DNA of 63,185 bases, counting the filler, from Candidatus Woesearchaeota archaeon (GTDB lineage Archaea > Nanobdellota > Nanobdellia > Woesearchaeales > DATGWN01), in assembly GCA_047603125.1 (NCBI GenBank). It is 6 parts of 5 records of this genome, joined end to end, with 100 filler letters (N's around TTAATTAATTAA, not from the genome) between each part and the next. Parts side by side here need not be neighbours in the genome. Positions count along the whole stretch, not along the records: positions 1 to 8,170 come from JBLKOU010000001.1; 5 more parts are not named here. The stretch is one strand, 5' to 3'. The notes under the pieces were generated by a model. That model ran no database searches. It saw nothing but the letters and a program-made list of their open reading frames with translations, and was not told where the DNA came from. Positions 2,991 to 63,078 of this stretch are shown here, in pieces. How positions within the stretch are numbered: position 1 is the stretch's first letter; every line of letters begins with the position of its first letter. The translations under genes were made by a program, and so were the position numbers.

Positions 2991-3138
2991 TGTTCTAACT
3001 TTTCCTTAAGCGCTTTTTGCATCTATTTTTTTATTGTTTTCATAGGGGTTATTTCCAAAACCTCATGGGCATTGAAGTCCGATGAGATAAGTTGATTTTG
3101 ATACCATAATGGGAGAATTAGTCGACGACATTAATTTC

Positions 3139-3232
3139 GCATAACTCGGCGATTTCACGACAGCTGTCAAGTTTGCAAAATCAGAGCTGCATGAATCGCT
3201 CTGATTTTTGATTTTACGCCAAGGAGTTATGC
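3139..3232 (+). ncRNA. Structured intergenic element, family copy A
   Basis: GCATAACTC/GAGTTATGC stem, GGCG/CGCC helix, AAG bulge, GAC-AGCT-GTC hairpin, GC, AAAATCAGAGC/GCTCTGATTTT hairpin, TGATTTTA linker; RNA versus DNA nature is inferred. Confidence 0.55.
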
Positions 3233-3294
3233 TTTTCTTTTGCCGCTAACTAAATATAAGGAATATTTATAAGATTAATGCCATAAAATCAGAT

Positions 3295-3627
3295 ATGGAT
3301 TGTTTAATTATCAAAAAAGAGCATCTTGATAAGATTTTTTCGGGAAAGAAGACTTGGGAAATCAGAAGTTCAAGAACTCATAAAAGAGGGAAAATAGGGC
3401 TTATACAAAGTGGTTCTGGAAATATTGTGGGTGAATGTGAGGTAGTCGATTGTTCTGATGAACTAACTTTGGAAGAATATCTAAAGAACAAAGACAAGCA
3501 TTGCTCAGAGAATACGAAATTAACATACAAAAAAACTTATGCGTGGGTTCTCAAAAATGCTAAAAGATATTCCAAACCTCTTAAGTATAAACACCCTGCG
3601 GGAGCTATTATCTGGGTTAAAGTTTGA
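3295..3627 (+). CDS. ASCH domain protein
   Basis: LIIKK...I.SGKKTWEIRS motif (GxKxxExR) and C-terminal YAWVL. Confidence 0.9.
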   Translation: MDCLIIKKEHLDKIFSGKKTWEIRSSRTHKRGKIGLIQSGSGNIVGECEVVDCSDELTLEEYLKNKDKHCSENTKLTYKKTYAWVLKNAKRYSKPLKYKHPAGAIIWVKV

Positions 3628-3662
3628 GTAAAGGTTATAAATGATCTTGAAAAATAAATACT

Positions 3663-4373
3663 ATGCCAAATAAATATGTGGATTTTGTTAGTGATAAGGA
3701 TTTTTTAGAATGTGTGAAGTGGGTATGTGAAGCTTACCCTCAAATTAATGATGTTAATGAAGTAAATATGAAATCTCTTACAAAAAATGCATTAGACCCT
3801 GTGAAAATGGTTTTTGATATTTTTAATGGAGAGATTGATTTTAACCAGTGGATAAAAAATGAGCAAATACGACAAGCAGATAAAACTGTCACAAATAGAA
3901 TAGGTGAGTTTCATCAAAGGTTGCTAGGAAAAGTTGCTGGTTGGGAAGATTTGGGCAGAGGTGATCCTCTAGGAATTGATCTAAAAAAATCAGATAATAC
4001 TATTTTTATTGAATTAAAAAATAAGCATAATACTGTTAAAGGAGAAGATCAGAAACATGTTTTTGATAAATTGAAAAGAGTTTCAAAACAGAACCCTTCT
4101 TCGAAAATATATTACGCGTATATTTTACCTAAAAAACCAAGTTCTGGTGAAAGAGTTTGGAATCCTTCCCAAAGAAGTTCTAAAGTTAATATTCTAGAAG
4201 CATGGGGTGGGAGGGTATATGAAATTGTTACTCAAAAATCTGACTCATTAGAACAAGTTTACAAAGCACTCCCGATTGCAATTGCAACAGTCTTACAAAA
4301 TAAGAGAAAAATTACGCGGTTTGAGAAACAAAAGCTGAAAGAACTTTTTGACTTGTCTCTTGGTACGCAATAG
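3663..4373 (+). CDS. Type II restriction endonuclease, Eco47II family
   Basis: RQ.DKT..N.IGEFHQ, GID and IELKNKHNT PD-(D/E)xK-type motifs; convergent with a C5 methyltransferase. Confidence 0.8.
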   Translation: MPNKYVDFVSDKDFLECVKWVCEAYPQINDVNEVNMKSLTKNALDPVKMVFDIFNGEIDFNQWIKNEQIRQADKTVTNRIGEFHQRLLGKVAGWEDLGRGDPLGIDLKKSDNTIFIELKNKHNTVKGEDQKHVFDKLKRVSKQNPSSKIYYAYILPKKPSSGERVWNPSQRSSKVNILEAWGGRVYEIVTQKSDSLEQVYKALPIAIATVLQNKRKITRFEKQKLKELFDLSLGTQ

Positions 4374-28479: not shown

Positions 28480-28538
28480 ATGATTGTATTTGTATTTGTG
28501 TTTATAAAAATAACGAGAATTTAGTTGCCGACAATAAC

Positions 28539-28638
28539 AAATTATAATACCTTGGCGCAGAATCAGAATTTTGAGGAGTTGCGCACCGGAGAAATTCGCG
28601 AGATGAACCACTGTTCAAAGATCGCCGTATTATAATTT
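28539..28638 (-). ncRNA. Structured intergenic element, family copy B
   Basis: Minus strand: AAATTATAATAC-GGCG-AT...TGAAC-AGTG-GTTCA...GC-GAATTT...AAATTC-TGATTCTG-CGCC-AAG-GTATTATAATTT. Confidence 0.55.
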
Positions 28639-28817
28639 ACTTATGTCCAAAACTAATTTGGACGTGTTCATAAATTGGTTAGAAGTTAAATAATAAATTC
28701 TCTTGATGCACTTGAGTCTGTAAGCTTAATTTTGTTTCGTATTGGGATTTTTTACTAGTATGCACAAAAAGTTCATGTCATTTTCGGTTACGGTTTGTAA
28801 ACTCATAGTTTATACAT

Positions 28818-29057: not shown

Positions 29058-29408
29058 ATGGCTGCAAAAAAAAGAACAAGAAAAGCTGTACGAAAAACAG
29101 CAAAACGAGTAACAAAGAAAACAGCTAAAAAGTCAGTACGAAAGGTCGCTAAAAAAGCAACACGCAAAAAAGCGGCTAAAAAGACTGTCCGAAAAGCTGC
29201 AAAAAAAACTGCTAAGAAAGTAGTACGAAAAGCGAAAAAAGCTACGAAAAAAGTTGCAAAGAAAGCTACTCGTAAAAAAGTCGCTAAAAAAGCAACAAAA
29301 AGAAAAGTAGCAAAAAAAGCAACACGTAAAAAAGCTGCAAAAAAGACAACAAAAAGAAAAGCAGCGAAAAAAACAGCAAAAAAACGAGTCGCTAGACGTC
29401 GCAAATAA
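29058..29408 (+). CDS. Histone H1/Hc2-like basic repetitive DNA-binding protein
   Basis: 116 aa almost entirely K/A/R/T/V in pentapeptide repeats (VAKKA, TRKKA); GAGG RBS and TATA upstream. Confidence 0.8.
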   Translation: MAAKKRTRKAVRKTAKRVTKKTAKKSVRKVAKKATRKKAAKKTVRKAAKKTAKKVVRKAKKATKKVAKKATRKKVAKKATKRKVAKKATRKKAAKKTTKRKAAKKTAKKRVARRRK

Positions 29409-29448: not shown

Positions 29449-29481
29449 TTGTCTGACGTTGTTAATTTTTTATAGGTTTGT

Positions 29482-29628
29482 GGCACTATTGCGGTGATTT
29501 GAGACGGCTGTCTAAATGCGAAATCTTCGTTGCATGAAACGTTGGAAAATGATTTTTCCAACGATGTTGAACAAAGATATTGTTCAACAATCACTCGATT
29601 TCTGGTTTCTCACCAAGGCAATAGTGTT
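29482..29628 (+). ncRNA. Structured intergenic element, family copy C (two extra hairpins)
   Basis: GGCACTATTGC-GGTG-AT...AGAC-GGCT-GTCT...GC-GAAATC...GATTTC-TGGTTTCT-CACC-AAG-GCAATAGTGTT; internal CGTTGGAAAA/TTTTCCAACG and TGTTGAACAA/TTGTTCAACA. Confidence 0.55.
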
Positions 29629-29694
29629 TGTACCGATATTTAACATTGTCAGTTTGTCTGAAACTTTTTAAATTCAAGCGCCTCAGTATTAGGT

Positions 29695-62968: not shown

Positions 62969-63078
62969 AAAAAAGAGCACCTCGCATCAAGATTAGAAAA
63001 TTTGGTGACTTTGAGCAGCCTAATTTTCGCACAATTCTCAAAGCGGGACTCTTGAGCAAAATCTGAGTGCTCTTTTTT
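62969..63078 (-). ncRNA. Structured intergenic element, family copy D (divergent)
   Basis: Minus strand: AAAAAAGAGCAC-TCAG-AT...CTCAA..TTGAG...GC-GAAAATT...AATTTTC-TAATCTTG-ATGC-GAG-GTGCTCTTTTTT; same spacing, but only 2 of 4 pairs in the inner helix. Confidence 0.4.

Follow-up and report, generated by a model that had tools for sequence, protein, structure and literature searches.

The window analysed here is a stretch of 63,185 nucleotides from the genome of a Candidatus Woesearchaeota archaeon. Near its start it carries an ASCH-domain gene (3295-3627) followed by an Eco47II-type restriction endonuclease gene (together 3295-4373, +), and these lie directly downstream of a short structured intergenic element, copy A. 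The first-pass annotation had described four intergenic loci that share one layout; all four were present on inspection of the window, their limits being corrected to A 3139-3232 (+), B 28539-28638 (-), C 29484-29626 (+) and D 62969-63078 (-). It had missed their MITE nature (copies A, B and C lie inside larger elements with terminal inverted repeats and target duplications), their inversion and their likeness to bulge-helix-bulge (BHB) introns. The features are as follows.

3116-3118 and 3253-3255 (+): 3-bp target duplication of copy A
3119..3252 (+): subfamily A MITE, 134 bp, with imperfect terminal inverted repeats TAGT...ACTA; ends match an IS630-like element
3139..3147 (+): outer stem h, 5' arm, pairing with 3224-3232
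3148-3151 (+): central 4-bp helix, 5' strand
3152-3154 (+): putative 5' bulge ATT
After 3153 (+): predicted EndA cut, 5' side
3154-3222 (+): predicted excised piece, 69 nt
3159..3168 (+): P2 hairpin, variable module
3177..3208 (+): P3 hairpin, 11 bp
3188-3197 (+): conserved P3 loop TGCATGAATC, site of optional two-hairpin inserts
3209..3223 (+): 8-nt junction strand, helix 3' strand and bulge
3217-3220 (+): central helix, 3' strand
3221-3223 (+): AAG bulge
After 3222 (+): predicted EndA cut, 3' side
3224..3232 (+): outer stem h, 3' arm
3266..3273 (+): TATA-like box, 13 bases past the MITE end, upstream of the ASCH-domain gene
28522..28655 (-): subfamily B MITE, 134 bp, TAGT-type ends, 3-bp target duplication; core 28638-28539
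29455..29650 (+): subfamily C MITE, 196 bp, GAC...GTC ends (IS6-like)
29484-29626 (+): core of C; its P3 loop bears a two-hairpin insert
62969..63078 (-): decayed subfamily D core, helix TCAG/ATGC, bulge GAG

The TATA-like box at 3266-3273 is the host promoter and lies outside the element, and the arms of outer stem h are the inverted repeats that flank an inversion of the core in relatives. The C copy of the window has a 9-bp target duplication; three of four other C copies have one of 8 bp. No recognisable terminal repeats or duplication were seen around the D copy, whose helix is a decayed GCAG/CTGC and not GGYG/CRCC. A strict pattern (GGYG...CRCC-RAG plus an outer stem of at least 6 bp) accordingly matched three of the four loci and missed D. 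Window 29058-29408 (+) encodes a 116-aa Lys/Ala/Arg-rich repeat protein that is histone H1-like and has no Pfam match.

Genome-wide, the strict pattern gave 39 matches, of which 38 were family members by inspection and one was not, and it matched nothing in any of 10 dinucleotide shuffles. The expectation that many more copies would be found was borne out by 117 covariance-model matches in the 1.12-Mb genome, drawn from 150 scored candidates of 745; the model used in all such searches was built from 27 host copies and is biased toward host-like forms. A looser descriptor, with 70-80 matches in shuffled sequence, served only for parsing copies, and 93 of its 158 rows were kept as family members.

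The core is about 95-100 nt long. Its outer stem h, of about 10 bp and closed by C-G, leads into the 4-bp helix H, a strand of 5-7 nt that mostly starts ATT, hairpin P2 and a strand ending in C; then come the 11-bp P3, whose loop is TGCATRAATC, a strand of 8 nt that begins TRA, H', the AAG bulge and the 3' arm of h. In H, 95-97% of cells are paired by at least 10 compensatory sequence types, and the GGYG/CRCC helix noted earlier does covary, although among 221 cores it is only one of these types. A 3-nt 3' bulge was present in 151/175 structure-free parses (many of them found by a pattern demanding it) and in 64/64 relatives found by the model, 58 of which have AAG. The first base is A in 152/221 of the 5' bulges and in 217/221 of the 3' bulges, the P3 loop is exactly TGCATRAATC in 135/221 cores, the junction strand has 8 nt in 201/212, and P3 keeps tandem pyrimidine mismatches across families. 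One building block recurs in the loop: in 44/44 matches an insert of 42 nt with two hairpins, 86-100% identical, directly precedes AATC, in six subfamilies whose stems are unrelated and whose shared anchors are only about 4 nt. The insert ends near TTCAA. Long forms also occur (G000:C48:3504-3651, L092, L096), with a P2 insert bearing small IS200/IS605-like hairpins; the P2 and loop inserts are possibly mini-inserts delivered by Y1 into exposed loops.

The proposal that selection acts on a branched fold is supported by strong stem covariation. Over 96 distinct copies 89.7% of cells are paired and the covariation score is 0.798, against 0.205 in shuffled alignments and at most 0.134 with slid partners; an independent set of 62 gave 90.8% and 0.786, both alignments being fitted to the model. 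From 22 sequences and no given structure, RNAalifold arrived at outer stem h, a bulge of 3 nt, the 4-bp helix and long hairpin P3, and single-sequence folding gave z-scores of -2.4 to -6.5 on both strands. RNAalifold favours a 2-bp mini-hairpin in the junction strand over h', the mean ensemble probability of the 4-bp helix is only 0.46, and no association was detected that would indicate kissing of the P2 and P3 loops. The earlier argument that G-U pairs single out the GGYG strand as the folded one is unsupported on two counts. The main stems of 221 distinct cores hold 56 G-U and 80 A-C against 3656 Watson-Crick pairs, and the mirror strand folds equally well or better, the given strand having the lower energy (RNA parameters) in 55/212 cores. 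Strand polarity is evident from the loops, which are never flipped relative to the bulge: P2 loop motifs are forward in 97 cases and reversed in 0. The loop-inversion classifier was noisy, with many rows scored as both, and the statement that no loop is inverted draws on row reading and on these motif counts. Since the loops never flip relative to the bulge, the object that is kept is a single-stranded fold of fixed polarity. Its absence from Rfam was confirmed, with 0 matches over the window at the gathering score; a search of 3000-3400 gave a best E of 0.54, far below gathering.

The core spreads as cargo of MITEs. These vehicles are non-coding, have terminal inverted repeats and measure 134 bp (A), 119-255 bp (D), 151-256 bp (C) and 145-187 bp (E). 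Target duplications of 3 bp bound 19/19 A copies, exact ones of 9 bp bound nine of 21 D copies, and E copies have about 9 bp as judged by eye. Duplications of the same types are found in G005, G006, G007, G046, G150 and G246, and the MITE end types of the host, plus further ones, recur in relatives. At four loci the core lies, by eye, within IS200/IS605-like hairpin ends.

TAGT-type ends begin a transposase fragment (HTH_33) at three contig ends, and TAGT...ACTA ends bound whole elements of about 1.0 kb in G007 and G246, two genomes that both have TAGT-type MITEs. We take this partner to be an IS630 relative from its Pfam HTH_33 match and its DDE motifs. The usual IS630 target duplication is TA, unlike the 3-bp duplication outside TAGT...ACTA seen here. 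Individual IS630-like elements (G000:C36:6032-6585, L402, L403) are about 1.0 kb long, encode their transposase in two frames and apparently duplicate 3 bp of target other than TA; their MITEs insert exactly 13 bases from TATA boxes. The GAC (C-type) end begins a DDE_Tnp_IS240 ORF (IS6 family). No autonomous partner was found for GG-type ends, a search for DDE_Tnp_1 gave no match, and half-elements around a long ORF, as in an autonomous core, were likewise not found. IS630-like, IS6, IS110 and Y1 loci were searched and held no model match inside; the one strong match near IS loci is a separate A copy beside an IS6 end. At least five unrelated end types carry the same core, whereas autonomous IS are without it. 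The first-pass annotation had held that a match to an IS-end family would remove the novelty, and such a match exists for the outer ends, which are IS ends, but not for the core, which is not part of those IS. An IS110-family transposase (DEDD_Tnp_IS110, Transposase_20) lies at G000:C64:126-1139 with no core nearby.

Copies are intergenic, with overlap of a called ORF in 2/93 host and 1/91 other copies, at an ORF end or a doubtful ORF, and the sites of spread are the upstream edge of promoters and gene gaps. In 14/19 A copies the end is 8-18 bases away from a TATA-like box (nearly always exactly 13), and the same holds for 13/21 D copies, against a background of 12%; this test was run after a modal gap of 59-77 bases from copies to start codons had been seen. 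The promoter-edge position reflects transposase targeting, and hot spots shared in this way would give new IS ends a simple route to repeated capture of a resident core.

Distribution of the family is patchy, as for a mobile element. Model matches were obtained in 6/9 genomes of the same family and in 1/51 others, and in 5/150 genomes sampled from the order and 7/150 from the phylum, where 27 candidates were scored per genome and a zero does not equal absence. Besides the host there are 15 carrier genomes in five families of the order, among them G008 with 46 copies. A motif scan of one genome per species returned at least 105 loci, of which 77 are model matches in records titled, going by titles only, Woesearchaeota or, for some automated assemblies, uncultured Methanosarcinales; 27 bacteria-titled motif loci included 0 model matches. 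Metagenomes contributed 55 model matches in the first 80 of at least 120 listed loci, and viral contigs one pattern match and no model match. Aragorn placed no tRNA or tmRNA at copies, and no neighbour gene was shared among 157 flanking proteins. The element is order-restricted and apparently undescribed: no description was found in the literature consulted, which included PMC12918454, PMC4090602, PMC10085705 and 10.64898/2026.05.13.725050, and supplementary ncRNA or MITE lists may hold one.

The core also outlives its vehicles. In G008 and other genomes, copies without recognisable ends occupy gaps of 10-50 bases between housekeeping genes. Among 24 such copies of G008 the P3 arms are 40% alike between copies, yet 188/192 P3 pairs and 143/144 h pairs are Watson-Crick; across the other genomes every end-less copy is different, yet their pairing is 98% Watson-Crick. 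The two genes bordering one such gap are adjacent without a copy in G003, G005 and G007, and judging from this gene order the copy arrived after the genes had become neighbours. The element then persists at orthologous sites whose flanks are 70-89% identical. Five orthologous pairs retain a related outer stem. Four of them (L203/L311, L231/L384, L196/L228 and L366/L387, the last two resting on one flank) have the same orientation, and in at least three of these four P2 or P3 has been replaced. In the pair L118/L302 the core shows a clean inversion between its outer arms, which differ by a single compensatory pair; the P2 loop and H are unchanged, P3 is replaced, and the flanking proteins are 69% and 81% identical. 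A sixth pair, L127/L360, is inverted with only one flank to identify it and with differing arms. In the host, the core is found in either direction with respect to the unequal TAGT arms, 19 copies facing one way and 1-4 the other. Orientation was always the same in about 104 near-identical locus pairs, so active switching in a population is not demonstrated. Inversion and module exchange are thus observed as outcomes, and template switching or conversion would be their cause; published work ascribes both the perfecting of arms and the inversion of spacers to template switching (PMC8604942, PMC8794818). Many host copies are decayed or internally deleted. Five short D forms are deletions between GAT repeats and other short forms deletions between CTGCA, AAATT or TGCG repeats, and the host genome yielded neither spliced DNA copies nor empty hairpins with a 7-nt loop for any subfamily. 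A replication-strand bias was rejected as an account of orientation, both orientations occurring within a few kb on single contigs. At G008:C192:388-579 (L119) two cores stand back to back, with 5' outer arms overlapping by a few bases.

Our preferred reading, which we put at a probability of about 45%, is that the core is a BHB-type substrate of the host EndA and RtcB from which a circular RNA of about 70 nt is released. The mobility beneath it is demonstrated: the core was captured by the ends of several unrelated IS, and the resulting non-autonomous MITEs are copied by DDE transposases, IS630-like enzymes acting on TAGT ends, IS6 enzymes on GAC ends and others on GG ends. Over time the ends are lost, whereas the core persists, turns round between the arms of h and swaps its inner modules with those of other copies. 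At its base, the AAG strand of the core would form a bulge-helix-bulge or the relaxed hBH, and once that strand is transcribed EndA would cut after the second base of each bulge and RtcB would ligate. The predicted products are a circle of about 66-79 nt (108-121 with inserts) showing the UGCAUGAAUC loop and a short hairpin left in the transcript; the circle would most likely be a decoy or scaffold for a loop-binding protein. Such an element would need no gene to interrupt, and on the AAG strand it may be a mobile intron-like RNA.

Both enzymes are encoded by the host, the EndA (contig C36) aligning to 1A79 and 5X89 over the catalytic Y, H and K stretches. Its five tRNA introns are themselves loosely built, with h' of 1, 1, 2, 2 and 5 bp and two with 3/4 helix pairs. 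In the core, a 5' bulge of 3 nt gives the most pairing of registers 0-6; at register 3 the share of copies with at least two h' bp is 0.33 against 0.25+-0.02 when shuffled, and hBHBh' with at least one bp is present in 123/212. A single h' pair occurs at 0.69 against 0.67 expected from composition, and this, together with the mini-hairpin preferred by RNAalifold, means that only the hBH half is firm. The adenines that lead the bulges here match the flipped first-bulge adenine described in PMC5829648, and the same paper states that relaxed motifs are cut only by (alpha-beta)2 and epsilon2 EndAs; no second EndA subunit was found in the host (best other match E=0.069). The EndA reading leaves unexplained the invariance of AAG, the C-G/G-C pairs around it and the loop.

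Between co-oriented genes, sense copies outnumber antisense ones by 55 to 32 (p=0.018). Copies antisense to the host transcript are nevertheless as intact as sense copies (Mann-Whitney p=0.34), and the BHB form is present in 77% against 68% of the two orientation classes (32/87 tandem copies being antisense; p=0.44); in non-host genomes it is present in 76% of 25 sense against 40% of 15 antisense copies (p=0.04), and the host shows the reverse. In metatranscriptome contigs (three runs of one study, depth 2-6) an A copy is spanned unspliced and no joints were seen, in assemblies that drop short circles. The runs X1-X3 contain 5-9% of the words, and their contigs cover element copies and one AT-rich stretch, not the genes between; because DNA carry-over in the libraries is possible, contig coverage cannot show expression. 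The equal integrity of sense and antisense copies, the lack of G-U enrichment, the folding of the mirror strand and the unspliced contigs all count against a reading at the RNA level alone. Flipping of the whole core would reconcile free orientation with a role as RNA, and copying of arms at the DNA level would do the same for the pure Watson-Crick stems. We consider improbable the fuller version of this reading, in which a gene-free BHB intron is caught by many transposon ends, EndA makes small circles with one loop, the flipping of arms is an on/off switch for the cutting of operon transcripts, and hairpins are traded under the guidance of structure. A BHB search in the host pre-rRNA stems gave one 16S candidate that pairs equally well as a plain duplex. 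At L268 (G000:C7:8440-13900) the precursor stems of 16S and 23S read as almost perfect duplexes in which no clear BHB stands out, and a 23S motif found about 800 bases beyond its expected place points to an insert. An intron-containing tRNA with a TAT anticodon (tRNA-Ile UAU) lies at G000:C39:32618-32725; intron-containing tRNA-Ile UAU is also known in a few other reduced archaea.

The main rival, which we hold to be somewhat unlikely, takes the core to work as folded DNA, on the single-stranded lagging strand or as an extruded cruciform, that serves as a structure-specific site of recombination or binding and whose intact copies an enzyme would refresh, invert and exchange in attC- or REP-like manner; the likeness to BHB would be incidental. 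Orientation that is nearly free relative to transcripts at equal integrity accords with this, as do the inversion at an orthologous site and the shared 42-nt insert in subfamilies with unrelated stems; the modest sense bias speaks the other way. IS200/IS605-type MITEs, which require single-stranded targets, sit right behind the core in 7/22 cases; a Y1 gene, however, is present in just 2/15 carrier genomes and broken in the host. No tyrosine recombinase was found in the incomplete genomes G008, G150 and G240, while non-carriers have them, and there is no reverse transcriptase (no RVT_1 match in the host) and no shared neighbour gene. The idea of a single-stranded substrate for a recombinase or HUH transposase, raised in the first-pass annotation, belongs to this main rival, although HUH (Y1) and tyrosine recombinase genes do not track the carriers. 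The near-pure Watson-Crick stems (188/192 in P3 with arms 40% alike) would also suit a folded-DNA site, but template switching alone can give perfect stems and inversions in RNA genes (PMC8794818, PMC8604942).

That process underlies a further alternative, a quite improbable one in our judgement, in which these are plain parasitic MITEs with a functionless core, whose apparent covariation would arise secondarily as template switching and gene conversion act on quasi-palindromic DNA. Target duplications, IS partners, patchy distribution, decayed or internally deleted host copies and stems that are Watson-Crick only would all follow; the unpaired AAG, the 8-nt junction, the P3 mismatches and the loop, however, are kept across families although repair would erase them, and loops never invert while the whole core does. 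Nor does it sit well with one core under at least five unrelated end types and missing from autonomous IS, or with end-less copies that persist at orthologous sites.

It appears very improbable that the MITEs carry a new ribozyme that cleaves itself, or some other RNA that catalyses without protein. Known small ribozymes do occur dispersed near mobile elements, and the multi-stem junction with invariant unpaired bases and optional arms is reminiscent of them, but no Rfam ribozyme matched even at E=10, inspection showed no covariation in the candidate pseudoknots (YGC of the junction with GCA of the loop; AATC of the loop with GATT), whose linkers are too short, the arguments from orientation and G-U pairs apply here as well, and the core is spanned uncut by RNA contigs. 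Compared by eye, the layouts of twister, twister-sister, hatchet, pistol, hammerhead and HDV misfit in helix order or conserved bases. Equally hard to credit is a domesticated cis-regulator, be it a terminator, an insulator or an element of stability or translation, that works via some host protein and not via EndA. Copies do stand at a distance of 13-15 bases from TATA boxes or, within operons, 10-50 bases ahead of start codons, with ribosomal-protein and grpE-dnaK gaps among the sites, and they persist long where they are, yet their neighbours have no functional theme, either orientation occurs, the same gaps in relatives are without them and the promoter-edge position is accounted for by transposase targeting.

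Set against known systems, the core under the EndA reading comes closest to the BHB introns of tRNA, rRNA and cbf5 mRNA processed by EndA and RtcB. It shares with them the 4-bp helix, the adenine-first 3-nt bulge on the 3' strand (with a putative counterpart on the 5' strand, each 3' of the helix), the variable helix and the outer exon-like stem, in a host that has both enzymes, and excised BHB introns circularise (PMC5829648, PMC12558985 and PMC12918454). It differs in that it interrupts no gene, occurs in up to 117 dispersed copies per genome as DDE-moved MITE cargo and is often antisense; its inner junction has a conserved loop, its 5' bulge is weakly closed, and its cleavage is a prediction. 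With IS630-like, IS6 and other MITEs the vehicles share a size of 130-200 bp, terminal inverted repeats, family-specific duplications, intergenic position and a partner IS in the same genome; what sets them apart is that at least five unrelated end types have one covarying fold in common, which the partner IS lack and which persists by itself in many genomes with all copies different. The element spreads like a MITE, and its processing probably resembles that of a BHB intron, yet it is a member of neither class as defined, because its interior is not derived from an IS, it survives without ends and it interrupts no gene.

Correia/NEMIS, ERIC/YPAL and BOX are small intergenic repeats of bacteria, mobile now or in the past, whose transcripts fold and can be cleaved by a ribonuclease of the host, BOX being modular. 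They are long simple hairpins of conserved sequence that RNase III or E cuts, whereas here sequence is free and structure fixed, and the candidate enzyme would splice. In attC sites and REP/RAYT systems (REPtron), structure is kept while sequence varies, with extrahelical bases and strand polarity. RYYYAAC...GTTRRRY ends as in attC occur only in subfamily A, other outer stems being unrelated, and copies lie in mixed orientation between housekeeping genes rather than in same-direction cassette arrays near an integrase; the host has a single XerA-sized recombinase. Unlike REP/RAYT there is no GTAG foot or intact Y1 gene flanked by copies, and the fold is three-way where REP is a simple hairpin; unlike retron ncRNA there is no linked reverse transcriptase or recurring neighbour. 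The circular omegaRNAs of haloarchaeal IS200/IS605, TnpB guide scaffolds at whose circles PMC12558985 found no BHB, share the trait of a transposon-derived archaeal RNA proposed or shown to be circular; the core here is not tied to tnpA/tnpB.

Known EndA substrates are almost only tRNA, rRNA and rare mRNA introns. If the EndA reading is correct, a transposon-borne, gene-free BHB module present in up to about 100 copies would offer a concrete way in which archaeal introns could have spread, a matter long debated; it would also define a large new class of circular RNAs in archaea and tie transposition directly to tRNA splicing. Were the core folded DNA, it would be a structure-defined DNA site with module exchange and inversion. 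In both cases the element is a strong natural example of stems that stay perfect as their sequence changes, and it shows that members of several archaeal transposase families insert at a set distance from TATA boxes.

Further repeats and gene clusters were noted in passing. A second repeat family, of about 200 bp with IS200/IS605-type hairpins, begins at window 5478 (+) and has 22 copies in G000; it always lies 3' of TTATT-like bases and in 7/22 cases directly behind the 3' arm of a core. At L001 (G000:C25:37764-38320) a broken IS200-type Y1 transposase gene is interrupted by a 261-bp element with a small ORF, of which two further copies are found at C15:10846 and C44:64. Three serpin-like paralogues, two of them in tandem with a repeated small membrane gene, are located at G000:C45:19945-23000 and C68:12041-13360.
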